Positions 19,911 through 36,245 of a stretch of 64,000 nt of DNA are shown here, piece by piece. The translations under genes were made by a program, and so were the position numbers. The DNA is from an uncultured Clostridia bacterium (GTDB lineage: Bacteria > Bacillota > Clostridia > Christensenellales > Borkfalkiaceae). Positions within the stretch are counted from its first letter, which is position 1. Each line of letters opens with the position of its first letter. The stretch is taken from contig CAMRSY010000004.1 of NCBI GenBank assembly GCA_947053545.1, positions 9,006 through 73,005 on the forward strand, written 5' to 3'. The notes beneath the pieces are model-generated. The model was not told where the DNA came from and searched no databases. It worked only from the letters and a program-made list of their open reading frames with translations.

Positions 19911-19914
19911 TTGG

Positions 19915-20073: not shown

Positions 20074-20075
20074 TT

Positions 20076-20378
20076 TCAACTCCTTTTTATACTCTCTAAA
20101 TTGATTATTCCGCCTATATCGGTTATGTTTAAATATCCCATACCGCTCAACGCCCGCGCCGCTTTTGCACTCCTAATTCCGCTATGACAATATACGTATA
20201 TAGGCGTAGTATTTTTGGTAACTTTCACTTTTACGTCTTCAATAGACTGAATAGGAATATTTACGCTACCCTCTATGTGATTTCGATTATATTCTTCCTT
20301 TGTTCTTACATCTAAAAGTACAGCGTTTTTATTTTGCCTGAATGCTTGCACGCCGTCAGTGATACTTATTTTGTCCAT
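20076..20378 (-). CDS. rhodanese-domain sulfurtransferase
   Basis: Active-site loop YCHSGIRS. Single-domain size (100 aa). Confidence 0.8.
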   Translation of the reverse strand: MDKISITDGVQAFRQNKNAVLLDVRTKEEYNRNHIEGSVNIPIQSIEDVKVKVTKNTTPIYVYCHSGIRSAKAARALSGMGYLNITDIGGIINLESIKRS

Positions 20379-20513
20379 ATAATAATTTTATACAAAATAT
20401 TAAGGTTAATGTATGCGCCTTAATTAAGTTTAATTTTGAATGTACTTGCAATAACAATTATTAATCTTTAATTGTTTAAAATTGCCTAATTAATTATCCA
20501 AATGCCAGCAAAA

Positions 20514-20948
20514 TCAATAAACATTGATATTGCACGATTTCATAACTTTTAATGCTGCAACGTGTCCTTCAGGATACGAAGCGCAGCAGCTGCTATCTAC
20601 CCGGATATCTGTGTAAGGTAAAAATGCCATTGTACCCAAAACGTTGGCAATAACGCAGATATCGGTACAAATTCCCACAAATTCGATTATCTCGGGTTGC
20701 AACCGCTGCAAATGCAAAATAAGTTCTTTACTGGCATAGGACCGCTTTTTGAATATCTGTGAGCCAAAGCATAACTTTGAAATTGATTCCTCTATTTTTC
20801 CACCCGACTTGTCTTCCGTAAGAATTATTTCGTAATCTTCCGACATTCTTGTTTCAATTTTTTTTATCACATTGTTTATTACGTCTTCCGTGCAGCATTT
20901 TTTTATATATTCTACTTGCATATCTATAACCACAAGAATTTTACTCAT
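20514..20948 (-). CDS. isochorismatase-family cysteine hydrolase
   Basis: D-K-C triad context: ILVVIDMQ, FKKRSY, GICTDICV. Confidence 0.75.
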   Translation of the reverse strand: MSKILVVIDMQVEYIKKCCTEDVINNVIKKIETRMSEDYEIILTEDKSGGKIEESISKLCFGSQIFKKRSYASKELILHLQRLQPEIIEFVGICTDICVIANVLGTMAFLPYTDIRVDSSCCASYPEGHVAALKVMKSCNINVY

Positions 20949-21015
20949 ATAATCTATTGTTGGCTTTATATCTAAGCTTAATGTATAAATAATTAATATG
21001 CGGTTAATTTCCGCA

Positions 21016-21062
21016 ACAAAAAAAGCCCTGCGGCGGAAATTCCGCCGCAGGACTTTTTTTGT
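21016..21062. terminator. Strong hairpin terminator closing the adhesin/anchor operon
   Basis: AAAAAAAG-CCTGCGGCGGAAATTCCGCCGCAGG-ACTTTTTTT. Confidence 0.75.
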
Positions 21063-21071
21063 ATCTACATA

Positions 21072-23516
21072 TTAAGATCTGCGCCTGTTGACGACAATAA
21101 CTACGGTTAGCGCTATTATTATAAGCACCGAAATTACGCTGATAACTATAATGGCAACAATATAAGGCATACTGTTATTTGTTTCCGAAACCGCACGGCT
21201 TATGTTTATCGTGTAACCGCTTACCGTTCCGTCTTCCGCAGTAACCTTAATAAAGTAGGGATTGTTACCGCCCGAAAGGCTTACCTTTTCCGATAAGCTT
21301 AGTTCATTCATCTGGCTATCGTACAACGTAACGGTTGCTCCCTCTATAGCTGCCGCGTATATCATAACCGAATCTACGTCGGCGGTAACCTCATATCCGT
21401 AGATATTGGTATTGTCGGAAACGTCCAAATCGTTTTCGTCACATTTCAAAGACGTAAGCATTTGCGAACCCAGCGGACGTAAAACGCACAATACATACGT
21501 ACCCTCGTCGCCGTTAGTGGCTTTCACACTTATTAAAATAGGATTTATGCCGCCTGACAACTTAACCGTACGCTTGCCTGCCGCAGGCGTTCCCTTATCG
21601 TTTATTATCGATATTACCGTCGCACTTGCATTGGGGTCGGTAGTCGTGGGCACGATATTAAGATTTTCAACATCTTTTGTAACCTCGACAAAGAAATAAT
21701 TCAAACCCGTTGATAAATCTACGGCGATTCCGTCGTACGTGAGCTTAGAAAGGGTTTTTACGTTCGATTCGTAAATTATATCGTAGGTAATCGTTTTTTC
21801 AACGATGTTGTTCTTGATAAAGCGAATAATATGCTTTGTCTTTTCAGCCCTGTTAATTTCGATATCGTAGTTAGTACCTTCAACCCTGTATTCGTCGCTG
21901 ACGAACGGATCGGCTTTTATTTTAAAGTGCGTTATCTCCAAGGTGAAAGGAATTGAAACAGTAAAATAATCGGCAACCGACGTTTCGGATATTACGAGTT
22001 GATGTTCTGAAACAACGGTATTACCGTCCTTTTTTAAACCTACTGCGGAAACGTTTGACAGCGCAAGTCCGCTGGTATCTTTCGCTATAACCACAACTAT
22101 AGTATAAATGTTTTCAACGCCGCTTTGAGACGTAACCTTAATTACTATACTGCCGGGAACGCTGTATTCACCCAAGCCGCTTACGCCGGAAAATTGCCCT
22201 GCAGCTTGCGCCTCTACTTTTACCTTTGTTGTTCCCTGCGGTACCGTAGCCGAATAAGTTGTTCTGTCCGGCGAAAACGATTCTGCAAAATTTACCGTTT
22301 CGTCACCGTCGGCTTTTACTATCTTCAAGGACAAAGACGACAACGTTGAATCCTCTTCTGCAGCTATTACCGAAAAAGTTATATTATATTCGGTAAAAGC
22401 AGATTTATCTTCCGAATAAACCTTTACCGTAACCGTATGCGCGCCCGCCGAAACAGTTCCCAAATTGCATCCCGACGTAGCCTCGATTACGGTGTTTCCC
22501 AGTTTGTTTCCGTCAAACATAATGTCTGCCGTCGTAAAATTACCGTTTTTAGTAAATTCGATTCTCAGGCGGTCTTTATCGGCGTAGGCAATTTGTCCCG
22601 CGTCGAACGTGCCGCCGTTAACAAGCGCGGTAGCGTTTATTTCGGGCGTTACGCTAACGGGCGTGCCGTTGTTTTTAAACGATAACGCCGATAGCGTGCG
22701 TATCTGCTCCGCCGCCTTTCTTGTTATATTTAACGTATAAGCCTGGGAAGACGACCCGTCCTCGGCGGTAACCGTAATAGTAACGGCATTTGCTCCTACG
22801 TCAAGGTTTGTTTTGCTAACCGTATATTTTGCGCCCGTGCTCACCTTAACTTTCAAATCGTTTAATGCTTTATAAGCGTACGGAACTTCGCACGTGTAAC
22901 TGAACCCCGAAGGCGTAAGTAGCGTTTTATTAACGCTCAATTCGGTAATTTTACATTCGTTAGAAGGAGATACAAAATTAATTGCAAGGTTTTCGCCCGT
23001 TATTACAGGATTGGCATCTTCGCCCATAGAGTCTAACAATTCTATTTCGCTTGCGCTAATCTGCGAAGACGTACCTGCCGTTAATGACGCTCCTTCCTTG
23101 ATTTTCAATGTTATCGAAGCTATCTTCCACTGCGTTTTCGACATCTCTTTGCCGTTATCGTCGCCCATCATAGTTATGTAGCCGGCATCTGTAGTCGAAT
23201 TGTTTCTGTCGTATTCGGAATTTTCGATATCGGTCGACTTATTGAAACTGACAAAGGCAAATACTTTTGTGTCGAAACTAAGTTTTACCTGAGCGCCCAG
23301 CATTGTTGTGCCCGTATTGTTTTTAACCGTTGCCGACACGGTGAACTGTTCGCCTGCCGCGTTTGTTTTAATTTCCGATAATGTAGAAGAAATTACTATT
23401 TCCGAACCGCCTGCCGCGTGTGCGTTTTTAACGGGCAGCTGTATGGCTAAAGCCGCACAGGCCGAAAACAAAATTAATAACATTACCAAAAATATTTTAT
23501 ATACTGTCTTTTTCAT
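21072..23516 (-). CDS. membrane-anchored scaffold: signal peptide, cohesin-like N-terminal module, about six cadherin-like beta-sandwich domains, C-terminal TM + RRRS
   Basis: N-terminal module (EIVISSTLSEI...FTVSATVKNNTGTTMLGAQVKLSFDTKVFAFVSF...ITLKIKEG) fits the cohesin pattern. Repeats end in YTLNITR, YNITFSV, YTIVVVI, YVLCVLR and YTINISR. TM span YIVAIIVISVISVLIIIALTVVIVV. Confidence 0.7.
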   Translation of the reverse strand: MKKTVYKIFLVMLLILFSACAALAIQLPVKNAHAAGGSEIVISSTLSEIKTNAAGEQFTVSATVKNNTGTTMLGAQVKLSFDTKVFAFVSFNKSTDIENSEYDRNNSTTDAGYITMMGDDNGKEMSKTQWKIASITLKIKEGASLTAGTSSQISASEIELLDSMGEDANPVITGENLAINFVSPSNECKITELSVNKTLLTPSGFSYTCEVPYAYKALNDLKVKVSTGAKYTVSKTNLDVGANAVTITVTAEDGSSSQAYTLNITRKAAEQIRTLSALSFKNNGTPVSVTPEINATALVNGGTFDAGQIAYADKDRLRIEFTKNGNFTTADIMFDGNKLGNTVIEATSGCNLGTVSAGAHTVTVKVYSEDKSAFTEYNITFSVIAAEEDSTLSSLSLKIVKADGDETVNFAESFSPDRTTYSATVPQGTTKVKVEAQAAGQFSGVSGLGEYSVPGSIVIKVTSQSGVENIYTIVVVIAKDTSGLALSNVSAVGLKKDGNTVVSEHQLVISETSVADYFTVSIPFTLEITHFKIKADPFVSDEYRVEGTNYDIEINRAEKTKHIIRFIKNNIVEKTITYDIIYESNVKTLSKLTYDGIAVDLSTGLNYFFVEVTKDVENLNIVPTTTDPNASATVISIINDKGTPAAGKRTVKLSGGINPILISVKATNGDEGTYVLCVLRPLGSQMLTSLKCDENDLDVSDNTNIYGYEVTADVDSVMIYAAAIEGATVTLYDSQMNELSLSEKVSLSGGNNPYFIKVTAEDGTVSGYTINISRAVSETNNSMPYIVAIIVISVISVLIIIALTVVIVVNRRRS

Positions 23517-26500
23517 AAGTCTTTATTCTCCTTCACGCTTAATCCCTCGTACAAATTTTTGGTTCCGAGGAAATAAGCGTTAAGCTGTGCCTTATCCGCC
23601 GCGCTTATTTTGCCGTCGCCGTTTAAGTCGCAGGCAAGTTTATTTACTGCGTCAAGCGTCTTTGTTCCTAAGAAATAAGCGTTTAATTGCGCCTTGTCAG
23701 CAGCGCTCAACTTACCGTCGCCGTTTACGTCGCCTTTAACTACAAGCGTTAACTGGTCGGTCGCAGTGCCGTTGTTGTACGCCTTAATAATTATTCCTGT
23801 AGCAACTTTCGTGTTCTCGATATCGGTTATTTCGGTTTCGCCGTCAGCGGTAAAAACCTTCACGTCGGTATTTTTAAACTGCGAAAGAATATCAGCAACT
23901 GTATCGTTAAGGGCCAGATTAATTAAGAAAGCGGGCTGCTCTATAGAATGGGTTTCCGCCTCAACGCCGTTTTCGTCAACTATTTTAAAAGTAGTATTAC
24001 TTTCTATAAGCGTAAAAATGTCGTCTGAGGAATTGCCCGACAGAGTAAGAATAGAATTTATGTCGCTCAGCTTCGCAACGTGTTCCGCAATTTCTTCTTT
24101 GGTGGCGTTTGCGTTATTTCTTACTGCTTCGGCAGCCGCAATAGCGTCAAGTAACGCCTGATAAGATATTTCGGTCCACTTTCCGTCTTCATTAGTGTTT
24201 GCAGATACAAAAGCGTTTGCAGCGTTTATTTTGTCAACAAGTTCGGTAAGCTCTATTATGCCGAACATTGCCTCTGTCAAATCGGTTTTAACCTTTTCAA
24301 ACTGCTCTCTGTCAGTGTTTCCCGAGGTCACGAATTCTTCTGCCGCAGTAATTTTTAACTTTAACAAATCAAGCGTAGATTCGGTAAATACTCTTTCACC
24401 TTCATCCGACTGTCTTACTAACTCTTTAGCCTCTTTAATAACGTCGTCAAGCGAAGCCGTATCCAGCCTTAACGCAATGCAAGCTTTTTCCAGAGCCTCT
24501 ACGGCGTCTTCAACCTGCTTGTTAGTGGAGTTTGCGCTTTCGTATACGGAGGTTGCCGCCTTTATGGAGTTTTGCAGAGCGGTAAACGTTTCTTCCGAAT
24601 ATTTGCCGTCGTCGTTATTATATGTTTTGGCCTCGGCGATTTTGTCTTTCAGCGCGCCTATGTCCACCATACCGCTGATGGCGTTGAAAAGTGTTGCGCA
24701 CACCATAGTATACGCCTCGTCGGTATCCTCTTCCGTGTCTTCGCCTGCGTCCGGATTAAAATCGTTAGCTTCCTGCAATGCCGAAATGAGATTTTCCAAC
24801 GACCTCTCGGTAAAATATCTCTTACCTTCTTCGCCTTCTTCCTTGCCGGCGGCAGCCAATATTTCGGTTGCCTGCTTAATAAGTCCGTCAAGCGCCTGCG
24901 TATCAAATTTCAACGCTTCGCGCGCGGCGACAAGATTTTGATATTCAACTACGTATTCGCTGATAACGTTGTTCGTACCTTCGCAATAAGCCTTACTCTG
25001 CGCAATCTGCGACTCTAACGCGGCGTACGTTGCGGCGACGTAATAGCTCTTGTTAAGCGCTTCGCACTCGGCTATAAGTTCAAGAAGAAGGCTCTTATGA
25101 AGCACAAGGTTTTCATAAGCGTTAACCAAGGCGTTATACGCGTTATCCACGTCTTCAGTCGTATAATCGTCGGGTTTTTCTATTATAAGTTTAGCCGCCG
25201 ATATTTGATTTTGCAAATTCAGATAAGATTCAACCGTATAATACTCGTAGGTATACATTTCCACGCCGATATACTCGGGATCGGGTTCGATAACGTTTCC
25301 TTCCTCGTCCTCGGCCGGTTTAATATGATGCCTGTTAAGTATTTCGGAAATTTCCGTAATATAATCCTGCAGCTTATTCGTATCGGGCTCTAACGCGGCC
25401 TCGGCAGCAAGAATAGCTTCTACGTTATCTATAGCGATATAATAACTGAACTCTTCCTTTTCACCGTTTTCATCGACGACGCCGCCGTTTAAAGCGTTTT
25501 CGGCGTTAGCTATCGCTTCTTCCAAAAGCGCAAGCCCGTCTTCCGCATACGAACCGCTTAAAAGCAGTTTCTTCTCTTCAATAAACGCCCTATAGTTTTC
25601 GATATCGGGCGCAATATTTTCAATTGCGGTTTCAAGGCTTTCCAGCACCTGCTTATATTCTTCAATTACCTCAAACTTGGTGGCATAGTCAACAACGCTC
25701 AACCTGCCGCTTGCCAACAGTTGTTTAGCCGTTGCAAGGGCGTCGGTAACAGCCTGATACGTTTCTGCCGTTATATACTGCGAATTTAAACTTTCCGCCA
25801 AATAGATAGCCATATCAAGTTTATCGGTTATAATTACCAAGCCGTCCATAGCGTTTTTAATTATGCTTATAAAGTCGTCAACGTCTTCTTCGCAGATTTT
25901 GTCGTTTATAAGCCCTTCAACCATATCAGTCTGCGTTACCAAAGCAAGATATGTTAATTCGGAATAATACTCTCTGTTAACTTCCTGCGCTCTTGCAATT
26001 TCGATAATCTCGAGAATAAGCGTAGGGTCGATAACGATATTATCTATTGCAAATACCAAATCGTCGAGTACCTGCTGCACCTCGTCCAAGGTAGGGCGGA
26101 TTTTTCTTTCAGGGTCTTCAATTATTTCGTAAGTTTTAACCGCGATATCATAGGGCACTTTCAGCAAATCACGCGATGCCTGCGTAAATACTTCAGGGCG
26201 GGCAAAAATCTTTTCCGCCTTCACTATTCTGTCGTGCAGTTCGGACGAATCAATTTTCAAATCGAAAATGGCTTTTTCCAAATTTTCGGACGCCGTTTTA
26301 ACGTCCTGCACGGATACCGACGGGTCGTTTACAACGTCTACCGCAGCGCTTAAAGCAGTTTGCAAATTGTTCCAGGTTCCGCTTTCATACACAACAAATA
26401 CTTTAAGCTCGCCCTTCTCGTCCAAAATCCAGTTGCCGTCGTTATCCTGCCTGTGTTTCGTGTTAGTCCATACGCTAACTTCTTTTACCCTTTCGGCAAG

Positions 26501-29500
26501 CGCGGTTTTATCGGCTTTCATATTCGCAAACGCCGTTTCGAAATCTTTTATTGCCTTTAATACATCGTCGTTAGAAGGATTATCGCCGCTCGCGTCCAGC
26601 ATTGCCTGGGCAGATGCGCCCAAAGCTTTAACCGCCGCAACGCTTTCCGCCGCGTAGCCGAGTTTGCCTATATAGTCTTCCCTGCTTTCGTCCGTTACAA
26701 TCGATATGTATTCGGTAAGAATTGAAACGTCAACTTTAATGCCTTCAATGGCCGCTACAAGTTCGTTTGTCGCAGTTTTAACTTTTGCAATGTATTCCTT
26801 ATTGTTTTTATCCTCTTCAGTAAACGACGAACACTCATCAACACAATCCGCCGCCGAGTTGCGCGCGTCGGTAAGGGTTGTCAATGTGTCGGCAAGATAA
26901 TACTTTTTATTCTGATTCTCTTCTGCAAGAATTAAATCGGCTTCCTTAATTTTGTCTTTTAAGAAATCGAGATTGACTTTCAGATTGAGTATGGCCGCAT
27001 TCAGCGCTATAGCCGCTTTGTTCACATCGTCTACAGTTGCTTCCGCATTGTCGTACACGTCTATTGCCGTATTCAACGCGTCAATAAGCTCGGCAAGGCT
27101 TTCGTCATCGTAAATGCTTTGGCTCGACTCTTCCCTTGCGATATCTATCAGATTTTTAAGATATTCCTTATTAATTTCCAAACCGTCGATAGCCGCCTGC
27201 AAATCTGCCAGCACCTTATCAACGTTTGCCGAATACGCAATAAACTGGTTGGGCTTTGCAGGGTCGCGCAGAAGCTCTTCGTTGGCAACCGTCATTGCCG
27301 CTTCAAACGTTGCCCAGCTGCTTAACGTATATTGCTCTTTCTTCTTTGTTCCGGCAATATTATATGCGTCGCTCAACGCGGTTTTATCTATCGTAAGGTT
27401 ATTTAACGCAACGCTTAAATCGTACGCGCACTGAGTTACCATCGTTCCGCTGGCTTGCTCGTTTTCGTATGTTTCAACTGCAGCGTTAAACGCATTGTTA
27501 AACGAAACCGTCGATTCGAATTTGCTATCGTCAAGCTTATTCGTCGGGTCTAAAACAACTTTACCGTCCGCAAAGGTAACTGATCCGCCCAAAGATTCGT
27601 AAGCTTCCTTTATTTTCGATTCGAGGTTGCTCTTATCTATTTTCAGTTCGCTTAACGCTTTGTTTATCGCTGCGGTCGCATCGCATACCTGTTTTGCCGT
27701 AGCATTAACGTCGTTATTAACAGCTACGCCTTCCGCCCTAACCGCTTTAAGGTTGTCGATATCTTCCTTCGTATAATCTTTTTCGGCACCTAATATAATG
27801 TTGTTTGCTTTGGTGATAGCATCGTTCAGCTTGGCCTTATTGACAACAAGATTTTTATTTGCCATTTCAAGCGTGGAAAGCGCCAGTTGAGCGTCTATAT
27901 TTTTATATTTGTTCGAATCTTCCTCAAGTACTGTACGCGCAAGTTCCAGCGCGCTGTCCATTGTTACGAAATTTACAAACCATTCTCTGTAAGGAACCTT
28001 ATTGTTTATTATATCGTCGTAAAGTTCCCTTAAAGCCGTCGTTTCGGGCCTCAGCCCCTCGATAGCCGCGTAAATTTCTTTTATGTACTGCTTTTTCTGA
28101 ACGTCGGTCATCGTAGCGGAATTTGCTTCGGCTTCCCTTACGATTCCCATCAATCTGCCGTAAGTTAATTCACTCCAGTCTTCCGCCTTATACGAAAGAG
28201 CCAAATCAATAGCTTCGTCAAGGTCGGAATTGTCTTCCGGAAGGCCGATAAGCGTAGGCAGACCGTTATTAGTATCCACATTGTGCTGCCATATACCGCC
28301 ACTGTTAATTTCCCATTCGGTTAAAATATTTACGCAGTCGGTCTTGAACAAATCAAGGCTTTCAATGTAATTATCCGCCTGAATACGCGCCTGATATTTG
28401 CTGTTTTTTACAAACGTTTCAACTCCGTCCAGCGCATAATTCCTAACGGCGTTAGTGCCGGCCGTGGGAAGATTAGCCGCCGTAGAGCCGCCTGTTGCTA
28501 TTTCCGCAGTCTGCAGATAGGTTGTTTTACCGCTTGTCGCCGAAATGCCGGTAGCTAAAGAAACACAATCAAGAATTTTATCGTATTTTGAAACGGTATA
28601 TCCCAGAATGCCTGCTGCGTGCGAGGTTGCATAAGTAGCGGAAGGTTTGCCGCTTACTGCCGAAAGCGTTCCGCTGAAATAACAGTTATAAATACCGTTG
28701 TACGCCTGATGGAAGACTCCCACGATACCGCCGGCAAGAGCCCACTGTGCGGAAGACGTATCGCTTACGTTTCCTATAGCGTAGCTGTTATAAATATGCG
28801 TTCTGTACTCGCCGACGCCTACCAGACCGCCCGCGCCGTATCCGCTTGCAAGCGTAGCCGTAACATTTGCCCTGGCGTAACTCATATATATTTCGCCGTC
28901 GCGGAACAGTCCCACAAGTCCGCCTACATACTTTCCGCCTTCAACGCGCGCCGTGGCAAAACTGCAGCTTATAGTACTGAATCCTCTGTCGGCATTGCCT
29001 ACAAGCCCGCCGATGTTTCCGCCCTGATTGGTAACACTGCCGCCCAGAACCGCGCAACTGGTAATAGAAAGATTGCCGTACGAATACCCTATCAATCCAC
29101 CTACGTTAGAATAAGACGTACCGGTTTGAGAAATGTTGGGTTTAATAACGTTTACGTTTTTAAAGTTTGCAAACTTAACGTAGCCGAACACGCCTACGTT
29201 TGAAGCATTTTTAGATAGGTTGGCGCCGGTTATCTTAAAGTTTCCGCCGTCGTAATTACCTGAAAAACTGTGTTTGAAATCGTAACCTGTTATACCTATG
29301 CCGTCTATATTTATATCGGCCGTCTGCTTAATATAAATTCCGTTATAGCAAACACCGTCATTTATATTTTGACTGAATTCGGCAAAATCTTCGGTGCTTG
29401 CCAAAGGAATGGGGTTATACCGCGATCCCAAATCGTAGGAAGGCGCACCAACCGCCTTCAAATAGGGGAAACCGTCGTTAACTCCGTCTTCTCTTGCCCA

Positions 29501-32500
29501 AACGCTTTCAAAATCCCAGCCCAGTCCTAAAGTGTCGGACTGATAAGTTCCCGTCTGCTTGAACATATCGTAAGCTTTCGGCTCGCACGCTACGCCCGTA
29601 GTATCGTTTGCATACCCTCTCTGTTTGGAAGCCATCCAACAATCTTCACTGTAAAAGTTTGCGCGTCCGGTTATGGTTACGGGGACAACCTTGTTATACC
29701 CGTTGCCCATATAACTTGCATATCTTACGTAAGTTGCCGTAGATACGCTTACTACCGCCAAGTTGGAAGAGTATATTTTTTCGCTGATAGTTGCACAGCC
29801 GCCCACAGTTGTGGAAGCAACGTTACCTAAACCGATAATTCCGCCCGCCATTGCGTGCCTGCTTGCAACACTGTTGGTTGCCATTATGTTGCCTAATACG
29901 TAACAGTTTTCAATACGGCAACCTTTAATAGCAATCAATCCGACTATACCGCCCGCATAGGCGCTGCTGTCCTTATTGGCGTTATAAACCATTACGTCGC
30001 CCGTAGAAAAACAATCGGTTATCGAAGCGGCATAAGTGGCCAGTCTGCCCGCTATTCCACCCGCATGAGATACACCGTCGCTTACAACAGCCCCCGTAGA
30101 ATAGCACTGGGAAATATTGACGCCTTCACCAAGCCCCAAAATTCCGCCTATCTGCGAACTGGTGCCGGTAACGTTGCGGTTAGACCAGCATTTAGTAATT
30201 GTTATTCGGTTGGCCGCCTTTGCCAAAGCGCGCCCTACTATGCCACCTACGTAAGCCTTGCCCTTAACAGGCGATAAAACGTTTGTATTTCCGCTTGCTT
30301 CGGGGTCAAACGTAGTGCTGCAGCCTTCAATTAAAGTTGTCTGCGCAGTAGTTGTAAGACTTATATAACCGACAATTCCGCCAACGTTGTTTGCATTTGC
30401 TTCCACAGAACCGCCTACCACGTGGCAGTTGATAATTTCGCAGTTTCTTATCAAGCCCGCAATTCCCCCCGCGCTTTCATAAGCCGTAGAAGCAATAACG
30501 GGATTTTTTAAAGTAAGGTTTTTGATAGTGGCATTTATTGCTATGGCAAACAACCCCTTATAGGCAGCCTGCTTGTTTACGTACATATTAGAAATTGTAT
30601 GTCCGTCGCCGTCGAAAGTGCCTGCGAAATAATATGTGGTATTTATACCGATCGGCGTCCAGTTGTCAACCGCCGATAAATCTATATCAGCTACCAGCTT
30701 TACCGTTAACCCGGCGTAAGTATTGCCCGAATTAACATAATCGCGAAAAGCAGACAGTTCTTCTTCCGTTGCAATTTCTATTGCATCGCCGCCCACACCG
30801 GGATAACTGTACTCGTTACCCTGTAAAACGGGAAGCTCAAGATCGGGATCCCACGACCAGGTGTTTACAAAATCGTAACCCATGGTGTTCTTCCACCACG
30901 CCAAATTTGTTTCTCCGTCCTGCGAATAATAATCGTACAACTTTGCGTCGGTGGTTTTATCGTTGGCAAAATAACTGCAGGGCGCATATGTGCCGCAGCT
31001 GGAATAATTTACATTATTAGCGTAATAATTGTTGGTCGCGTTTGCAGTATCGCGTATGTATTTATAAGAATTGGTTTTAGCGGTAGGATACTGAATTACG
31101 CCTGTACCCGCTGCATTGAGTCCGCCGTATCTGTAAGGCTCTACAGTAGAGAAAAGCGTACCATACCGCTTGTGTGCGGTTTTGTTGTTGGGCTGCTGCT
31201 TAAACGAAGTGTAAAACGCGGCGTTATTAGTTAATGTAACCTCAGGCGCGGCCAATCTGGCTACCAAACCGCCGAACCTAGTTGATGTACCCGAACCTAT
31301 TGCCGTGGTGGCGTTATAAACTATGCTTCCGGTATAATAGCAATTTTCTATTTTTGAACCTCTGGAGGTGCCGTCGACGTGTCCGATAAACGAGCCTTCG
31401 GCTCCCGCAGTAACATTGCTTGTAGAAAAACAGTCTTTTACATTCGAATTATTGTACAAACCACCGACAAGGGCGCCCGTAAAATATGTTAAAACTTTAT
31501 GAGCGTCGTTGTACACTTCGCCAGCAGTATAACACCTTACTACGTCTCCGCCGGAAACAATCCCCGCAAGTCCGCCCGAATCGATTGTTGTCGCCGCGCC
31601 TTTTGCCGTTAAGATATGCACGTCTACCGTGGAAGAACAATCGACAATTAAACCGCCTTTGTTGAATCCGGACAAATAACCGACTATGCCGCCCATGTAG
31701 GACCTACCCAAAATACAGGATTCCTGAGCGGTAGGCTTGCTACTTCTGATCACGTGGCATTTGCTAATTTTACCGTTCCACTCTATACTTCCCGCTATGC
31801 CCCCGACAAAGTCGCCCCCTTCACCTGTAAAATACGGGTCTTCAAGGGTAATTTCGTTTAATTCGGCGCTCATTACTCTGCCGACAAGACCCTTATAATC
31901 GGTGGCTTTGGCTATTTCCATATTCTTAAGAACGTGGTTATTGCCGTTGATTATTAAATATGCGGGACTTTTGTTTAACGCCAATCCCATAGGCGTCCAT
32001 TCGCCGAGCTCTATATCTTCGGTAATATTTATCGTCAGTTCGTGAATGGGCACGCCCGAGTTAACCAACTTTACAACATTTAAAAACTCGTCTCTGGTTG
32101 CAACGTCGTAAACCGTGCTTTCGTGCTCTTTGAACGTCAGCCCTTTTAATACCGGTCTACCTCCGTTTACCGAGGCGTTTATTTCCCATATTTCGGTATC
32201 GAAATCTTTGAAAACTCCGCCGAATGACATATTGTCTGCAACAGAAATTGCGCTTACCCTGTCGCCCATAGCGTTTAGATCGAGAACTATCAGGTCCGCG
32301 TTATTCTGATTTATGTATTCCGCATCGTTTACGTATTTTAGATTATCCGAATTGCCCTGCGTTGCCGTAGCGGTCTCCTCGCACGAGAAAGTGGCAATGG
32401 GAGAAAAAGCGTTACCCACAGCGTAATCGGTAGCTTCGTAGTGCGTACTCAAGCTTACGGCGTTTGTAATCGTCGCGTTACAGTCAACAAGCCCTACTAT

Positions 32501-33856
32501 ACCGGCTAAACGCGTGGCCGCTTTGGTAAAATAATAACCGTAATAATGATTTTCTGTGAAAGAAACATCGGAATAAACGTTTGAAAAAGTTATATCCGAA
32601 CCTGCCCAGCCGCTTATACCGCCGAAACACAAGTCAGGCTCGCCCTCGTATTCAAAGCCGGGTCTGCCATAACTGTTGCCGCTGTTACCGTTCCCGCCGT
32701 TTCCGGGCAAGCCCTTAAGGTTGCCGACTATTTCAACTTTTCCCACCGCAAAGCAATTATCTACATTGCCGCTGGCGTCGCCTACAATGCCTCCCGACCA
32801 AACGCTTCCGCGCTGACCGCCGTTGCCGCCGTAACCGCCTCTGTTGGTACTCGTACCCGAGCGACCGCTGCCGCCGTAACCGCCGTAAGCCGCGTAAAGA
32901 CGCATATCAATATTTGCGTAACAACGGGAAATACTGCCGCCATCCGTAGTTTCAGGATTAGATTCGTCATTATAAAGCCAGCCGACTATGCCGCCTATGC
33001 TTACGTCGCCGCCGTTACCGCCGTTACCGCCCTTTCCGCCAGCGCCGGAATATGCGTTACTTCCCGCGCCGCCGCTACCGCCGGCACCGCCGTAAGCGTA
33101 AATATCGCCCGTAAACGAGCACTGCTCAATAACCGACCCGTCTGATTCGGCTACGATACCACCAACGTAAGTATTGGCGCCGTTGCCGCCGTCGCCGCCG
33201 GCTTTACCGCTACCCGATTTATTGGTGCCTGCTTCACCGCCGTTGCCGCCGTTGCCGCCTTCCGCATAAACAAATCCTGTAACGCTGCAATTTGAAACGG
33301 TACTTTTTACAGCATTTCCGGCTATGCCGCCCGAACCTACGCTTACTGCCGACAAGCCGGGTTTACCGGCACCGCTTGTCGCGCCCTTTGCCCCCGCTGC
33401 GCCTGAAGGCGAAGCGGCGTATATATTTGCATTTTCGACAACAAGATTTTTTACCGAAGCATTATTAAGATAACCGAATAATCCTACGCGGCAATTTGTT
33501 TCGTTTACGTTTGCATTTGCCACGTACAAGCCGCTTACCGTATAATTTCCGCCATCGAACGTTCCCTTGAAAGGATTTGTCTGCGTAGAGCCTATGGGCG
33601 TAAACGTAGCGTATTTCAAATCGACGTTAGTTGTAAGTTTAACGTATTTACCTTCGTACGTCGTACCAGAGTTTACCGAATCGCGGAAGGCCTTTAAATC
33701 GTTTGCGCTGGAAACAAGATATGGCGAAGCCTCGGTACCCGAGCCCGCCAACGCAACCGAATTAATTTTAACAAGCGGCGCCAAAAAAGCGCCGAGCATG
33801 GCCAGCACGAACAGCGCCGATAAAATTAAAACAGCTATTCTTCTTTTAGTAGCCAT
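23513..33856 (-). CDS. giant secreted protein (3447 aa): signal peptide, four GLUG-motif beta-helix modules with Gly-rich inserts, about 20 FIVAR-like helical repeats, C-terminal dockerin
   Basis: Many GGIAG/GGIVG/GGLVG GLUG motifs. Four copies of the module E..L..FR..VNSG..Y.G..VKL..DIDL...W.PIG...F.GTFDG.G. Helical repeats of type Y...S...L..A...A........V..A...L..A...L. The end carries a duplicated Ca-binding segment (DVNGDGKLSAADKAQLNAYFLG / DLNGDGKISAADKAQLNAYFLG). GGGGG RBS. Confidence 0.85.
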   Translation of the reverse strand: MATKRRIAVLILSALFVLAMLGAFLAPLVKINSVALAGSGTEASPYLVSSANDLKAFRDSVNSGTTYEGKYVKLTTNVDLKYATFTPIGSTQTNPFKGTFDGGNYTVSGLYVANANVNETNCRVGLFGYLNNASVKNLVVENANIYAASPSGAAGAKGATSGAGKPGLSAVSVGSGGIAGNAVKSTVSNCSVTGFVYAEGGNGGNGGEAGTNKSGSGKAGGDGGNGANTYVGGIVAESDGSVIEQCSFTGDIYAYGGAGGSGGAGSNAYSGAGGKGGNGGNGGDVSIGGIVGWLYNDESNPETTDGGSISRCYANIDMRLYAAYGGYGGSGRSGTSTNRGGYGGNGGQRGSVWSGGIVGDASGNVDNCFAVGKVEIVGNLKGLPGNGGNGNSGNSYGRPGFEYEGEPDLCFGGISGWAGSDITFSNVYSDVSFTENHYYGYYFTKAATRLAGIVGLVDCNATITNAVSLSTHYEATDYAVGNAFSPIATFSCEETATATQGNSDNLKYVNDAEYINQNNADLIVLDLNAMGDRVSAISVADNMSFGGVFKDFDTEIWEINASVNGGRPVLKGLTFKEHESTVYDVATRDEFLNVVKLVNSGVPIHELTINITEDIELGEWTPMGLALNKSPAYLIINGNNHVLKNMEIAKATDYKGLVGRVMSAELNEITLEDPYFTGEGGDFVGGIAGSIEWNGKISKCHVIRSSKPTAQESCILGRSYMGGIVGYLSGFNKGGLIVDCSSTVDVHILTAKGAATTIDSGGLAGIVSGGDVVRCYTAGEVYNDAHKVLTYFTGALVGGLYNNSNVKDCFSTSNVTAGAEGSFIGHVDGTSRGSKIENCYYTGSIVYNATTAIGSGTSTRFGGLVARLAAPEVTLTNNAAFYTSFKQQPNNKTAHKRYGTLFSTVEPYRYGGLNAAGTGVIQYPTAKTNSYKYIRDTANATNNYYANNVNYSSCGTYAPCSYFANDKTTDAKLYDYYSQDGETNLAWWKNTMGYDFVNTWSWDPDLELPVLQGNEYSYPGVGGDAIEIATEEELSAFRDYVNSGNTYAGLTVKLVADIDLSAVDNWTPIGINTTYYFAGTFDGDGHTISNMYVNKQAAYKGLFAIAINATIKNLTLKNPVIASTAYESAGGIAGLIRNCEIINCHVVGGSVEANANNVGGIVGYISLTTTAQTTLIEGCSTTFDPEASGNTNVLSPVKGKAYVGGIVGRALAKAANRITITKCWSNRNVTGTSSQIGGILGLGEGVNISQCYSTGAVVSDGVSHAGGIAGRLATYAASITDCFSTGDVMVYNANKDSSAYAGGIVGLIAIKGCRIENCYVLGNIMATNSVASRHAMAGGIIGLGNVASTTVGGCATISEKIYSSNLAVVSVSTATYVRYASYMGNGYNKVVPVTITGRANFYSEDCWMASKQRGYANDTTGVACEPKAYDMFKQTGTYQSDTLGLGWDFESVWAREDGVNDGFPYLKAVGAPSYDLGSRYNPIPLASTEDFAEFSQNINDGVCYNGIYIKQTADINIDGIGITGYDFKHSFSGNYDGGNFKITGANLSKNASNVGVFGYVKFANFKNVNVIKPNISQTGTSYSNVGGLIGYSYGNLSITSCAVLGGSVTNQGGNIGGLVGNADRGFSTISCSFATARVEGGKYVGGLVGLFRDGEIYMSYARANVTATLASGYGAGGLVGVGEYRTHIYNSYAIGNVSDTSSAQWALAGGIVGVFHQAYNGIYNCYFSGTLSAVSGKPSATYATSHAAGILGYTVSKYDKILDCVSLATGISATSGKTTYLQTAEIATGGSTAANLPTAGTNAVRNYALDGVETFVKNSKYQARIQADNYIESLDLFKTDCVNILTEWEINSGGIWQHNVDTNNGLPTLIGLPEDNSDLDEAIDLALSYKAEDWSELTYGRLMGIVREAEANSATMTDVQKKQYIKEIYAAIEGLRPETTALRELYDDIINNKVPYREWFVNFVTMDSALELARTVLEEDSNKYKNIDAQLALSTLEMANKNLVVNKAKLNDAITKANNIILGAEKDYTKEDIDNLKAVRAEGVAVNNDVNATAKQVCDATAAINKALSELKIDKSNLESKIKEAYESLGGSVTFADGKVVLDPTNKLDDSKFESTVSFNNAFNAAVETYENEQASGTMVTQCAYDLSVALNNLTIDKTALSDAYNIAGTKKKEQYTLSSWATFEAAMTVANEELLRDPAKPNQFIAYSANVDKVLADLQAAIDGLEINKEYLKNLIDIAREESSQSIYDDESLAELIDALNTAIDVYDNAEATVDDVNKAAIALNAAILNLKVNLDFLKDKIKEADLILAEENQNKKYYLADTLTTLTDARNSAADCVDECSSFTEEDKNNKEYIAKVKTATNELVAAIEGIKVDVSILTEYISIVTDESREDYIGKLGYAAESVAAVKALGASAQAMLDASGDNPSNDDVLKAIKDFETAFANMKADKTALAERVKEVSVWTNTKHRQDNDGNWILDEKGELKVFVVYESGTWNNLQTALSAAVDVVNDPSVSVQDVKTASENLEKAIFDLKIDSSELHDRIVKAEKIFARPEVFTQASRDLLKVPYDIAVKTYEIIEDPERKIRPTLDEVQQVLDDLVFAIDNIVIDPTLILEIIEIARAQEVNREYYSELTYLALVTQTDMVEGLINDKICEEDVDDFISIIKNAMDGLVIITDKLDMAIYLAESLNSQYITAETYQAVTDALATAKQLLASGRLSVVDYATKFEVIEEYKQVLESLETAIENIAPDIENYRAFIEEKKLLLSGSYAEDGLALLEEAIANAENALNGGVVDENGEKEEFSYYIAIDNVEAILAAEAALEPDTNKLQDYITEISEILNRHHIKPAEDEEGNVIEPDPEYIGVEMYTYEYYTVESYLNLQNQISAAKLIIEKPDDYTTEDVDNAYNALVNAYENLVLHKSLLLELIAECEALNKSYYVAATYAALESQIAQSKAYCEGTNNVISEYVVEYQNLVAAREALKFDTQALDGLIKQATEILAAAGKEEGEEGKRYFTERSLENLISALQEANDFNPDAGEDTEEDTDEAYTMVCATLFNAISGMVDIGALKDKIAEAKTYNNDDGKYSEETFTALQNSIKAATSVYESANSTNKQVEDAVEALEKACIALRLDTASLDDVIKEAKELVRQSDEGERVFTESTLDLLKLKITAAEEFVTSGNTDREQFEKVKTDLTEAMFGIIELTELVDKINAANAFVSANTNEDGKWTEISYQALLDAIAAAEAVRNNANATKEEIAEHVAKLSDINSILTLSGNSSDDIFTLIESNTTFKIVDENGVEAETHSIEQPAFLINLALNDTVADILSQFKNTDVKVFTADGETEITDIENTKVATGIIIKAYNNGTATDQLTLVVKGDVNGDGKLSAADKAQLNAYFLGTKTLDAVNKLACDLNGDGKISAADKAQLNAYFLGTKNLYEGLSVKENKDL

Positions 33857-34026: not shown

Positions 34027-34056
34027 ATAATATCATATGTTTTTACAATATGTCAA
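34027..34056 (-). promoter_or_regulatory. Candidate sigmaA promoter of the giant-protein gene (TTGACA-18-TGaTATTAT)
   Basis: Minus strand: -35 at 34056-34051, extended -10 at 34035-34027. Leaves a leader of roughly 165 nt. Confidence 0.5.
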
Positions 34057-34094: not shown

Positions 34095-34134
34095 ACAAAA
34101 AAATGCACGCGGAAATTACAATTTCCGCGTGCAC
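34095..34134 (-). terminator. Rho-independent terminator after the second sipW-like gene
   Basis: Minus strand: GCACGCGGAAAT-tgta-ATTTCCGCGTGC followed by TTTTTTT. Confidence 0.75.
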
Positions 34135-34146
34135 CGAGCCGACAGT

Positions 34147-34797
34147 TTATCCATCGTGATCGCTCTTTTTATCTGAAGAAGGCAATTCGCCGTTTCCCGA
34201 ATCGCCGCTTTCGCAGTTTCTTACGCAAGTCGTAAGTTTTTCCGATTTTTTTTGTTTGAAAATTTTAATTATTTTTATTACTTGCTGCACTATAAACGGC
34301 ACCGCCACGGCTAAAATAATAATTAATATTCCGTAACGGTTTATAAATCCGAATACTTTTCCCCACCCCGCGGAATTGAAAATACAAATTCCCAGCAAAT
34401 TGCCGCTTGTTACTAAATCTTTATCAGGCTGCGGATTGGTTTTACCGTTTAACCCCTGAGTTATAATTCCATCGGCGGTTATTTCCTTTACCGCATGCAC
34501 TATGCTTTGCCCTTTAAGCCGCCCGAAACCGTCGCCGGCAATAAACACAACGTAATCGCCCGGCTTCACGTCTTCGTACGAACAAGCGTGAAAAGCAATT
34601 AAATCGCCCGTCATTATATAAGGTTCCATCGAATTGGTCTGCACCAGCGCAAACGACGTGCCGAAAAAGCTTACCGGCTTATTTTTTGCCCGGCAGTAAA
34701 TCATATTTATTATAACTATTGCCGCCAACGCTATTATAAGCGCGGTTAAAACGGTAAAAATTATTGAAAAAACTTTCTTTACCGAAACATTGCTCAT
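34147..34797 (-). CDS. SipW-type (ER/archaeal-type, S26B) signal peptidase I, copy 2
   Basis: N-terminal TM, catalytic Ser box QTNSMEPYIMTGDLI, His box SIVHAV, C-terminal TM. Start placed at MSNVSVKK (34797), overlapping (ATGA) the stop of the upstream gene. Confidence 0.75.
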   Translation of the reverse strand: MSNVSVKKVFSIIFTVLTALIIALAAIVIINMIYCRAKNKPVSFFGTSFALVQTNSMEPYIMTGDLIAFHACSYEDVKPGDYVVFIAGDGFGRLKGQSIVHAVKEITADGIITQGLNGKTNPQPDKDLVTSGNLLGICIFNSAGWGKVFGFINRYGILIIILAVAVPFIVQQVIKIIKIFKQKKSEKLTTCVRNCESGDSGNGELPSSDKKSDHDG

Positions 34798-36245
34798 TTT
34801 TTTCCCCGCGTACGTTTTATAGTCGTAAGCTTTTTGCGGATAACCCGCTTGGGCCTTGCCTTTTCTTTTTCTTCGGCAAGTTCCTTTTGCAGCCGTGCCA
34901 GCCTCGATTCCGCGCGTTCCGCCATACGTTGCGCCCGCTCTACCTCTTCCCATTTCAGTTTTAAAAAAAGTTTGCGCCTGCGTATTCGCTCCTGCTGCTC
35001 CTTTATCGCGGCGCGCTTTTTCTCTATCGCGCCCTGCTGAGTCTTTTCAGCGGATACGCCTTTTATCTGTTCTTCGATTAATTCGTTGAACATCTCGTCG
35101 TTGATACGCGAAACCGATCGGAAAAACTTTGAAAAATTAACGTTTAAGCGGTTTTCAACCTCGAATTCGCCCTCTTTTGCCGAAGCTGTGAGTTCGTCTT
35201 TCATCTTTCGGAAATAATATTCGTTTATAGTTTCCTCGCCCGCCTGCTCTTTGGAAAAGTTAAAATCGGGCGTAAACTCGTAACTGGTAACAATAGCAAA
35301 CTCCCGCTCCTGCGGCACGGAAAAATCGATTCCGTCATATTCTTCTCGTTTTAAAATTCTGTCGGTAATAAGCGACTGCAAACTAAGCCCCGCAATTACC
35401 GTCAAATCATCGAAGTAATCGCCGTCGACAGGCAAATTTTTATCTTTAACCTCGATTGAATAGCCCAGATAAGTGTACGACGAAATATATAACCAAAGTT
35501 TATAACAGTTGTTGTAGTCGACGTTCTTGTTTAAAAGGTTTGTCTTCTGAATTGGCGGACGCACGGGTTTTGCTTTGCCGAGTTTTTTCATAAATTCGGT
35601 AGACTGCAAAACGCGCAGCCTGCGCCTTATTAAAGCAACCCTGTCGAAAAGATCCTTGTTTTTATTCGCATCCTTCTCGTCTTGCGGAGGCTCTTCAACC
35701 TGCAAATTTATATTGCACTTGAATTTGCTTTTACCGTATTCGAACTGCGACTGCACGCAAACGTTGGTCTGCTCGAAACTTTGCACCTTTCCGTTAAGGT
35801 CCTTATACCGCTGTTCCACAAATATAATAAGTCGGTTTATCAACGCGCAGATAAAGCGATTTTCGTAAATAGCCAAATCCTCGTCCAGTTCAGCCGTAAG
35901 CAATTTTTTTGGCATAACGTCGCCGTTTTTATCGATATTCTGTACGTATTGCGAATTTGTTGTAAGATGACGGACGGTTTTTGAATTTGTGCGGCGCACC
36001 TTGGCAACGTCTAAAATCAATTCGTTTTCGGCGATAAATTTACGGGGATTTCGTACAATCTGTTCGATAGAATGCAGCGAGTTTTCAAGCATTAATACCC
36101 ATCCGTCGTCAAGCATAACCGCCTGTGAAACCACGTTATGCAAAACCTTGTTTTCTCCCCCGCGCAACGCGGCAAAAAAACGCGAATAGCTTTCGGCGTC
36201 GCCGTCAATTTTGTTTATGAAATTATTGAGAAATGACTTATCCAT
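34794..36245 (-). CDS. McrC/DUF2357-like partner protein with highly charged C-terminal coiled coil (483 aa)
   Basis: Sits directly downstream of a McrB-family AAA+ gene. Motif LAIYENRFICALINRLI resembles the conserved YENRF helix of DUF2357/McrC-type partners (from memory, not searched). The last ~90 aa are Lys/Arg/Glu-rich heptad-like sequence. No clear nuclease domain. Confidence 0.45.
   Translation of the reverse strand: MDKSFLNNFINKIDGDAESYSRFFAALRGGENKVLHNVVSQAVMLDDGWVLMLENSLHSIEQIVRNPRKFIAENELILDVAKVRRTNSKTVRHLTTNSQYVQNIDKNGDVMPKKLLTAELDEDLAIYENRFICALINRLIIFVEQRYKDLNGKVQSFEQTNVCVQSQFEYGKSKFKCNINLQVEEPPQDEKDANKNKDLFDRVALIRRRLRVLQSTEFMKKLGKAKPVRPPIQKTNLLNKNVDYNNCYKLWLYISSYTYLGYSIEVKDKNLPVDGDYFDDLTVIAGLSLQSLITDRILKREEYDGIDFSVPQEREFAIVTSYEFTPDFNFSKEQAGEETINEYYFRKMKDELTASAKEGEFEVENRLNVNFSKFFRSVSRINDEMFNELIEEQIKGVSAEKTQQGAIEKKRAAIKEQQERIRRRKLFLKLKWEEVERAQRMAERAESRLARLQKELAEEKEKARPKRVIRKKLTTIKRTRGKK

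Follow-up and report, generated by a model that had tools for sequence, protein, structure and literature searches.

How might a giant exported protein that ends in a dockerin be fastened to the cell that makes it? The question is raised by two overlapping genes in a 64-kb stretch of DNA (the window) from an uncultured Clostridia bacterium; statements of absence made about the window cover this stretch. Both open reading frames (ORFs) lie on the minus strand, and together they occupy the whole of the interval 21072-33856. It is likely that they form a two-gene operon which builds a two-piece surface fibre by way of a cohesin–dockerin joint, the joint most likely fastening the giant, adhesin-like product of the first gene to the cell through the membrane-anchored stalk encoded by the second. 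The partnership of dockerin and cohesin is supported by three independent lines of evidence: the conserved adjacency of the two genes, the conservation of the dockerin repeats, and a co-variation of the two modules that is independent of the sequences flanking them. The docking principle itself is already known. New here are the GLUG/FIVAR giant as cargo, the cadherin-like stalk, the predicted translational coupling and the co-varying joint.

The gene pair and its expression signals

The two genes and the signals around them are as follows (aa, amino acids; nt, nucleotides).

23513..33856, minus strand: giant gene, 3447 aa, with signal peptide, four GLUG heads, FIVAR-like helical rod, small beta module and type I dockerin
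21072..23516, minus strand: stalk/anchor gene, 814 aa, with signal peptide, cohesin, six cadherin-like modules and membrane helix
23513..23516, minus strand: ATGA overlap, in which the TGA stop codon of the giant gene and the ATG start codon of the stalk gene share four bases
34027..34056, minus strand: promoter-like site TTGACA-18 nt-TATTAT with extended TG, 11 of 12 consensus positions matched
34102-34135: terminator-like hairpin of the preceding gene, just before the promoter-like site
21017..21051, minus strand: intrinsic terminator, an 11-bp GC-rich hairpin CCTGCGGCGGA-ATT-TCCGCCGCAGG followed by the T-tail GCTTTTTTTG

The four-base overlap was already recorded in the first-pass annotation, a reading of the sequence by eye that preceded this analysis, and it stands as described. 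A GGAG ribosome-binding site lies about 11 nt 5' of the stalk ATG, within the dockerin-coding end of the giant gene. The overlap and a ribosome-binding site inside the preceding gene together imply that synthesis of the giant and the stalk would be translationally coupled. The promoter-like site is found about 170 nt 5' of the giant gene, just past the hairpin that ends the preceding gene, and the intrinsic terminator begins 20 nt beyond the stalk stop codon; since its hairpin is palindromic, this terminator appears to be bidirectional. These promoter-like and terminator-like sites, which are consensus matches with a predicted function, bracket exactly the giant and stalk genes. The picture suggested is that of a two-gene operon with translational coupling.

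The dockerin at the end of the giant protein

23534..23737, minus strand: type I dockerin, aa 3374-3441 of the giant, with two 25-residue repeats encoded at 23660-23734 and 23558-23632

That the 3447-aa protein ends in a duplication of the type I dockerin kind had been proposed from its sequence pattern, and the proposal is borne out by profile searches. Pfam Dockerin_1 matches aa 3374-3430 with 44.5 bits (cut-off 22.9, E 1.8e-11), and the nearest sequences in the PDB are type I dockerins (E about 1e-5). The first repeat, GDVNGDGKLSAADKAQLNAYFLGTK, spans aa 3375-3399 (window 23660-23734) and the second, CDLNGDGKISAADKAQLNAYFLGTK, aa 3409-3433 (window 23558-23632). Both contain an intact D-x-N-x-D-G...D12 calcium loop, with D1, N3, D5 and D12 in place; the loops read DVNGDGKLSAAD and DLNGDGKISAAD, each followed by KAQLNAYFLGTK. 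The duplication is visible in the DNA too, as had also been pointed out: 23559-23631 and 23661-23733 are 79% identical over 73 nt. A six-frame translation of the whole window contains no second dockerin-like duplicated EF-hand motif.

The two repeats agree in 22 of 25 residues, including all of the putative recognition positions. Their codons differ at 14 of 25 positions, 11 of the differences being synonymous and 3 conservative. Because 11 synonymous changes have accumulated while the protein has stayed near-identical, the likeness of the repeats is kept by purifying selection on the protein, and not by recent gene conversion. Within each orthologue, too, the two repeats are more alike than either is to the repeats of other orthologues. 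Repeats so alike would be expected if the dockerin has two equivalent binding faces, and they point to dual (two-orientation) binding, which is typical of type I dockerins. One orthologue (P0182, locus L083) departs from the pattern in its second calcium loop, which is degenerate (ANINAKTGDKKVNAVD): a 3-residue insertion is accompanied by loss of the D1 and D5 ligands, while the first repeat is intact. This protein may be a natural single-binding-mode variant.

The cohesin and its membrane stalk

22941..23417, minus strand: single type I-like cohesin, aa 34-192 of the stalk protein, at the mature N-terminus (Pfam, AlphaFold2, Foldseek, PDB profile)
21192..22940, minus strand: stalk proper, aa 193-775, with six beta-sandwich modules of cadherin-like type (Pfam, periodicity)
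21090..21170, minus strand: C-terminal transmembrane helix of 27 residues, aa 783-809, followed by the cytoplasmic tail NRRRS (hydropathy)

The module that follows the signal peptide of the stalk protein had been described as resembling a cohesin, and this holds at the level of both sequence and predicted fold. The Pfam cohesin profile (PF00963, cut-off 24.1) scores 47.4 bits in the whole protein, at aa 48-155, and 51.6 bits with aa 34-192 alone; a PDB profile search matches 1g1k (E 4e-4). An AlphaFold2 (AF2) model built with eight orthologues is all-beta, with a predicted local distance difference test score (pLDDT) of 90.3 and a predicted template modelling score (pTM) of 0.84. When this model was compared with the PDB by Foldseek, the 50 best matches were all cohesins, with template modelling (TM) scores of 0.55-0.72. 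The best is the type I cohesin of Clostridium thermocellum OlpC (4dh2_A, E 6.5e-9, TM 0.72), and the list is led by C. thermocellum OlpC and OlpA (3ul4), C. acetobutylicum CohA2 and C. cellulolyticum CipC. The model superposes on type I cohesins with TM 0.64-0.72 and a root-mean-square deviation of 2.6-5.0, and on type II cohesins with TM 0.55-0.65 and a deviation of 4-8, the ranges showing some overlap. No helix of four or more residues is assigned by DSSP, and the type III cohesin 5n5p ranks only 31st among the 50 best matches. The modelled cohesin thus seems to fit type I somewhat better than type II. Used by itself as query in a word-index homologue search, the 159-aa cohesin matched one 89-aa fragment, and the family hidden Markov model (HMM) finds no second cohesin in the window.

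The cadherin-like profile (PF12733, cut-off 24.2) scores 93 bits in the stalk protein, so that all three Pfam profiles bearing on the pair (PF00963, PF00404 and PF12733) exceed their curated cut-offs. The first-pass count of about six cadherin-like domains is matched by periodicity, recurring start and end motifs delimiting modules at aa 186-267, 271-385, 388-478, 480-583, 584-680 and 681-775; five stretches are significant in a piecewise Pfam scan. The sixth module is missing from the more distant orthologues P0006, P0008 and P0009.

The C-terminal helix at aa 783-809, likewise noticed at the outset, is a true membrane span, since stalk orthologues bear cytoplasmic tails of 70 to 430 residues beyond it. 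Two other ways of anchoring the stalk were considered and rejected. A conserved cysteine in the signal sequence raises the possibility of a lipoprotein; in most orthologues the residues before it do not make a lipobox, and further on there is a normal AxA site. Sortase anchoring is ruled out by the lack of an LPXTG-like motif and by the long cytoplasmic tails of the orthologues. The absence of glycoside hydrolase and SLH domains (Pfam) and of a sortase signal (LPXTG-like motif scan) from both proteins agrees with what had been read from the sequence. Many of the stalk-type proteins (P0073, P0008, P0009 and those of loci L018, L032, L057 and L059) have long, highly charged, coiled-coil-like tails, the longest of about 430 aa in P0073, whereas the window stalk has only NRRRS. 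Such long tails hint at a link with something inside the cell.

Conservation of the pair and co-variation of its modules

Stalk orthologues of 37-66% identity were found, all of them from uncultured Clostridia metagenome-assembled genomes (MAGs) and metagenomes. A scan of GTDB with the single stalk protein gave no match. With the stalk alignment it gave one true orthologue (L008, 59% identity), in the species representative 'uncultured Christensenella sp.', and many other loci that share the cadherin-like modules only. An exhaustive search with the cohesin profile recovered about 12 clusters, at 50% identity, in which an N-terminal cohesin is joined to cadherin-like modules and a C-terminal membrane helix; classical multi-cohesin scaffoldins ranked lower. 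In all orthologous loci with flanking DNA (L001-L008 and L083-L086) the gene directly 5' of the cohesin gene ends in a duplicated dockerin, and the two either overlap or are separated by 0-7 nt, down to 37% identity. Giant orthologues P0177-P0185 (38-100% identity) all contain Glug and Dockerin_1. One of them, P0180 (GCA_023666445.1, 62% identical), is labelled Roseburia sp., and a Bacillota-style cassette at locus L048, described below, is labelled Muribaculaceae; these doubtful MAG labels could result from binning errors or from horizontal transfer.

Pairwise identities of rod, X-like module (the small beta module preceding the dockerin), dockerin, cohesin and stalk were compared across nine orthologous loci by Mantel tests. 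Cohesin and dockerin vary together (r = 0.80, Mantel p = 7e-4), and continue to do so when the flanks are controlled for (partial r = 0.78, p = 4e-4). Neither follows the stalk, the rod or the X-like module at all closely (r = 0.16-0.33, p = 0.03-0.13), while stalk and rod follow one another, as expected from shared phylogeny (r = 0.91, p = 4e-5).

Sliding identity profiles illustrate the same behaviour in both directions. Between L005 and L006 the flanks are 75-95% identical, the dockerin 39-65% and the cohesin 20-32%, identity rising to 82% right past the cohesin. Between L001 and L086 the flanks are 25-55% identical, the dockerin 85-87% and the cohesin 62-85%. That L001 and L086 acquired their joint by a recent horizontal transfer was considered and rejected, the joint DNA being only about 76% identical; for the same reason the joint type common to these two loci is held to be old and conserved at the protein level. 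The 3' end of the first gene, which encodes the dockerin, and the 5' end of the second, which encodes the cohesin, make up one contiguous segment of about 0.7 kb. Since the divergence of the cohesin tracks that of the dockerin and not that of the flanks, the simplest reading is that this joint behaves as one cassette, swapped or diversified as a unit across the gene boundary, and that mismatched pairs would not be tolerated. Such co-variation is strong, if indirect, evidence of a cognate interaction.

It could be supposed instead that the modules do not interact, the cohesin acting as an Ig-like spacer, the dockerin as a calcium-binding stabiliser, and the adjacency of the genes reflecting co-expression of two surface proteins. 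Binding is indeed something that we infer, and many non-cellulosomal cohesins and dockerins are without a known partner (PMC11557425). Against this, the co-variation is confined to exactly the cohesin and the dockerin, selection holds both dockerin repeats alike, the two modules stand at the only termini that permit docking, and the same gene order recurs with unrelated cargo in other Bacillota. A pair of non-interacting modules is, on this evidence, hardly credible.

Heads, rod and signal sequence of the giant

33746..33856, minus strand: signal sequence, aa 1-37, with KRR, a 23-residue hydrophobic core and ALA before GSGTE (sequence and hydropathy)
28187..33745, minus strand: head region, aa 38-1890, four tandem modules of about 400-550 aa each (Pfam Glug)
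24047..28186, minus strand: acidic alpha-helical rod, aa 1891-3270, of FIVAR-like repeats (Pfam FIVAR, iterative self-HMM)
23738..24046, minus strand: X-like module, about 100 aa, beta-rich, immediately before the dockerin, where an X-module would sit, and conserved in all orthologues (alignment)

Signal-peptide cleavage is placed, provisionally, after ALA. A small-x-small site after the hydrophobic core is conserved, reading ALA/GSGTE here and ALS/GSGTE and ALQ/GSGTE in orthologues. The 23-residue core is long enough to span a membrane, and the giant might thus keep its N-terminal segment as an anchor and be tethered at both ends, as a loop or arch. The conserved site after the core and the conservation of a signal peptidase gene immediately upstream make this very unlikely, as does the geometry: in a loop the heads would return to the membrane, making the long rod pointless. 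A giant with a free N-terminus, held by its dockerin, is preferred. It has no C-terminal membrane helix and no LPXTG-like motif (hydropathy, motif scan).

The GLUG and FIVAR content announced for the giant is confirmed by Pfam, with Glug at 90 bits (cut-off 20.5) and FIVAR at 34.1 bits (cut-off 29.2). Each head module starts with the motif '...SPY.I.t.eeL..f...vn.G..y.g....L..DidL' and carries runs of GG[ILV]xG (GLUG) turns, of which a motif map gives 19 between aa 176 and 1709. A beta-helix fold for the heads is assumed from what is known of GLUG proteins. The 1850-aa head region has no solved relative at E <= 0.01 in a PDB sequence search, and no catalytic or ligand-binding domain was recognised in the heads by Pfam, NCBIfam and PDB sequence searches. 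The rod that follows holds at least 14 FIVAR-like repeats between aa 2028 and 3265, found by iterative self-HMM; they recur at intervals of about 70-75 aa, and about 19 would fit into the rod. Its composition is strongly acidic (D+E 263 versus K+R 128).

In other organisms, homologous GLUG heads share a polypeptide with SLH, CW_binding_2, T9SS tail or M26_N modules. Because the heads are joined to other anchors in those proteins, the dockerin here seems to fill the slot of a cell-surface anchoring module. Pfam finds neither glycoside hydrolase nor SLH domains in giant or stalk, and domain searches of the window find no glycoside hydrolase or carbohydrate-binding module (CBM) in the giant or in neighbouring genes.

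The description of the giant as an adhesin is read from its domain content and architecture. An alternative accepts the joint as proposed and sees the cargo as a coat, matrix or spacer fibre (a capsule-like brush, a biofilm scaffold, an anti-phage or anti-immune shield) or as an enzyme. Several observations could be cited for it: the 1850 head residues without an identified ligand-binding or catalytic domain; the proteases of the M14 (L041) and C1 (L048) families carried by cassettes of the same layout; a TasA-like matrix-type protein and SipW peptidase encoded 4 kb upstream; and a weak likeness of the giant to the ZmpB model of NCBIfam (49.5 bits against a cut-off of 3000). On the other side, GLUG and FIVAR modules are characteristic of the large adhesins on Gram-positive cell surfaces, heads at the distal tip of a long rod are the usual layout of a fibrillar adhesin, and no peptidase or hydrolase domain is detectable in the giant. 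A cargo of this other kind is considered unlikely.

A probable two-piece fibre and the points that weigh against it

The dockerin lies at the extreme C-terminus of a secreted giant, and the cohesin is the first module of the mature, tail-anchored stalk protein. The proposed topology is the only one that fits these domain assignments. Both products would be exported by Sec. The 814-aa protein would be kept in the membrane by its C-terminal helix, its six cadherin-like modules holding the cohesin some 20-25 nm off the membrane, as a rough estimate. The giant would be freed from the membrane by signal-peptide cleavage, and its C-terminal dockerin, presumably binding calcium, would plug into the cohesin of the stalk. 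From the membrane outward the order would then be membrane helix, six-module stalk, cohesin::dockerin, X-like module, FIVAR rod and four GLUG heads, and the heads most likely bind a ligand on a host, a food particle or a partner cell. The order of parts is the one put forward in the first-pass annotation; its stalk length of about 650 aa does not hold, about 590 aa lying between cohesin and helix. General domain dimensions give a stalk of about 20-25 nm, a rod of about 50-60 nm and heads of a few tens of nm, and the fibre might thus reach about 100 nm, again a rough estimate. Through the ATGA overlap and the internal ribosome-binding site, socket and plug would be made together; through diversification or exchange of the 0.7-kb joint as a unit, each plug would stay matched to its own socket.

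Several points weigh against this proposal. An AF2 model of the last 185 aa of the giant (X-like module and dockerin, with eight orthologues) is unusable, with a pLDDT of 42. The hydrophobic core of the giant signal sequence is unusually long at 23 residues and might escape cleavage. The heads are without a characterised relative, so that the word 'adhesin' is guessed from the architecture. The genome beyond the 64-kb window may contain further dockerins or cohesins. Finally, dockerin and cohesin are adjacent in the DNA, and one recombination tract could move both without any functional link, so that physical linkage partly confounds the co-variation. The ends of the tracts match the module boundaries in several independent comparisons, which argues against pure hitch-hiking.

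Relation to known cohesin–dockerin systems and giant adhesins

The closest precedent is found in R. flavefaciens, where the gene order scaC-scaA-scaB-cttA-scaE places an adhesin gene directly before an anchor gene, and where the cellulose-binding CttA docks through an X-dockerin on ScaE, a sortase-anchored protein with a single cohesin (PMC4081043). The CttA–ScaE joint withstands 600-750 pN (PMC4266597). Common to that system and the one described here are a non-enzymatic adhesin (a role inferred in the present case) with a C-terminal dockerin, encoded directly 5' of a single-cohesin anchor, and a small module before the dockerin. They differ in anchoring, in cargo and in cohesin type. ScaE is attached to the wall by sortase, whereas the window protein has a membrane helix and six-module stalk with no LPXTG; CttA binds cellulose by means of CBMs within a cellulosome, whereas here the cargo is a 3447-aa GLUG/FIVAR protein without CBM or glycoside hydrolase; and the ScaE cohesin is of type III, whereas the window cohesin appears to be nearest to type I.

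OlpA and OlpC of Clostridium (Acetivibrio) thermocellum provide the closest solved structures, and in these proteins, too, one surface type I cohesin captures single dockerin proteins. By contrast, they are anchored by SLH domains and carry cellulosomal enzymes, and their sequence identity to the window cohesin is only about 15-16%. Surveys of 2024 and 2026 list single cohesins with a C-terminal transmembrane helix, some of them in non-cellulolytic organisms, from Lachnoclostridium sp. MSJ-17, H. luporum, C. cibarium, Ruminococcus difficilis, R. sp. HUN007 and others (PMC11557425; PMC13463774). These resemble the window stalk in having one cohesin and a C-terminal helix, and are proposed to anchor dockerin proteins to the membrane. 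They were listed in passing, with partners that are unknown or presumed to be enzymes (amylases), and the reports contain no cadherin-like stalk, operonic partner, giant adhesin cargo or co-evolution analysis.

Non-cellulosomal cohesin–dockerin pairs in gut Clostridia are represented by the C. perfringens NagH/NagJ/NanJ family, whose cohesins 2jh2, 2vo8 and 2w1n are among the Foldseek matches of the window cohesin. The C. perfringens complexes link secreted glycoside hydrolase toxins together, whereas here a non-enzymatic fibre would be linked to a membrane anchor. FIVAR modules are said, by Adams et al. in 2008, to accompany dockerin-bearing proteins of C. perfringens. The Ebh/Embp proteins of staphylococci and streptococci are very large, and owe their length to tandem FIVAR-type helical bundles which form a rod. 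Tandem repeats of this type likewise build the rod of the giant (here at least 14), but the anchor of Ebh-type proteins is part of the same polypeptide, while here it would be a separate protein, joined non-covalently. Cellulosomes and amylosomes differ again, since the window has one cohesin, no multi-cohesin scaffoldin and no dockerin-bearing polysaccharide-degrading enzymes, and neither giant nor stalk has an SLH domain or a sortase signal.

Non-cellulosomal cohesins and dockerins have long been known, and a 2009 review by Peer et al., cited in PMC10066038, is said to cover them. The first-pass annotation had called the arrangement unusual: the lack of enzymes, SLH domains and sortase signals stands, and its novelty was overstated, given that CttA–ScaE and membrane-anchored single cohesins were already known. 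A literature search found no paper joining GLUG with a dockerin in bacteria, and none of the papers retrieved reports a giant adhesin whose partner is a membrane stalk of cadherin-like modules.

The same two-gene layout with other cargo

A GTDB scan seeded by the cadherin-like motif identified ten loci in other Bacillota that share the gene order, a gene ending in Dockerin_1 being followed on the same strand by a stalk-like gene, with unrelated cargo. Their cargo is as follows.

L067, Eubacteriales MAG: BspA-type leucine-rich repeats (LRR) and Big_2
L041, Bacillota MAG: M14 carboxypeptidase and Big_2
L048, 'Muribaculaceae' MAG: C1 peptidase and lectin-like domain
L018, Bacilli MAG: 19 cadherin-like modules
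L075, Lachnospiraceae MAG: SH3 and cadherin-like modules
L057, Clostridium sp. MAG: SH3
L077, Acholeplasma oculi (wall-less): Listeria-Bacteroides repeats
L012, Clostridia MAG: Listeria-Bacteroides repeats
L076, Clostridia MAG: no other domain
L059, Clostridiaceae MAG: no other domain

The downstream proteins of all ten share one plan, in which a signal peptide and an N-terminal beta module precede the cadherin-like modules, and a membrane helix leads into a charged cytoplasmic tail. Pfam Cohesin recognises the N-terminal modules of L067 (38.5 bits) and L048 (41.8 bits); those of the other eight do not score with Pfam Cohesin, and when the cohesin profile was aligned by hhalign with the modules of L041, L018 and L075 the probabilities were below 10%. 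Five further loci (L011, L017, L042, L046 and L060) encode a protein of the stalk layout with no dockerin gene within 10 kb, and only that of L011 has a Pfam cohesin (35.1 bits). Because of these five, the adjacency of dockerin and cohesin genes is common but not universal.

The same five loci lend something to the idea that the stalk is a general anchoring scaffoldin for many dockerin proteins, the giant being one client among others or docking mainly elsewhere. In bacteria with cellulosomes or amylosomes, many dockerins usually share a single type of cohesin (PMC11557425; PMC13463774), and the visible genome amounts to 64 kb only. Such a role is nonetheless decidedly unlikely for the window stalk. 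Translational coupling implies that giant and stalk are made one to one; the family to which this stalk belongs keeps the two genes strictly adjacent; the joint type switches as a pair between close relatives, which would strand any other clients unless they changed as well; and the window contains no second dockerin. A dedicated joint between giant and stalk remains the favoured account.

It is attractive to consider two extensions of that account together. In the first, the joints would be polymorphic, mutually orthogonal cassettes, plug-and-socket types being exchanged or diversified as units between lineages so that each strain fastens its own fibre only. In the second, the two-gene arrangement would be a generic and as yet undescribed membrane display system of non-cellulolytic Bacillota, including the wall-less Acholeplasma, in which a membrane stalk, tipped with a cohesin or cohesin-like module, presents whatever dockerin-tagged cargo is encoded just 5' of it, be it a giant adhesin, a BspA-type LRR protein, an M14 or C1 peptidase or an SH3 protein. 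That both hold is a tentative suggestion which may well prove wrong.

Cohesin–dockerin joints have been studied almost only as the glue of cellulosomes, and here such a joint appears to fasten a fibre to the membrane of an uncultured gut Clostridia lineage. Should the binding be real, it would offer a testable model of how hard-to-culture gut commensals stick to hosts, food particles and partner microbes. It would also provide protein engineering with naturally diversified and presumably orthogonal plug–socket pairs, each of about 230 residues and encoded in one DNA stretch, and would mean that co-variation of module pairs across a gene boundary can identify cognate cohesin–dockerin partners in metagenomes, in which the chief obstacle is otherwise to tell which modules belong together. 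The recurrence of the layout with protease, LRR and SH3 cargo suggests a general route of surface display independent of sortase, SLH domains and S-layers.

Neighbouring genes in the window

Upstream of the giant gene, and in one case downstream of the stalk gene, the following were recognised.

34147..34797 (within ORF 34147-34953), minus strand: archaeal/SipW-type signal peptidase I gene, TIGR02228 57.3 bits, cut-off 51.85
34794-36245, minus strand: DUF2357 protein, McrC-like partner of the next
36306-37844, minus strand: McrB-like AAA protein, Walker A GISGTGKTS, weak NCBIfam McrB match
37879-38772, minus strand: second SipW-type signal peptidase, TIGR02228 58.3 bits, next after the 335-aa protein
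38959-39966, minus strand: 335-aa secreted protein with SipW-dependent-type signal peptide (TIGR04088, 24 bits, cut-off 19; motif GSTFAWFTS)
12079-16965, minus strand: 1628-aa predicted surface protein

The signal peptidase I gene directly 5' of the giant gene has its likely start at Met53 of the listed ORF and its own terminator, and occupies the same position at the orthologous loci L083, L084 and L085. That it encodes a dedicated peptidase for the long signal sequence of the giant is speculative; the giant N-terminus does not match the SipW-cognate signal model.

The 335-aa protein and the second peptidase resemble a TasA/SipW matrix-protein pair. They lie 4-5 kb upstream of the giant/stalk operon and are kept in L083-L085. 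The McrB-like/DUF2357 pair sits between the two SipW genes, and the entire block, TasA-like, SipW, McrB-like, DUF2357, SipW-like, giant and stalk, is syntenic in L083-L085.

Gene content varies among relatives on the downstream side of the operon. In L001 and L083, polA and coaE come immediately after the stalk gene. The window has an insert of about 9.5 kb (about 11500-21070) between the stalk gene and polA/coaE, holding isochorismatase-like and rhodanese genes, an opposite-strand histidine kinase and the gene for the 1628-aa protein; L085 has a different insert, with an AbiH gene after the stalk gene. The 1628-aa protein, by prediction a further large envelope protein with a tail anchor, has no Pfam or NCBIfam match. 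It is predicted to have an N-terminal signal anchor, Gly-rich beta-helix-like repeats, Cys-x2-Cys ... Cys-x2-Cys clusters and a C-terminal membrane helix.

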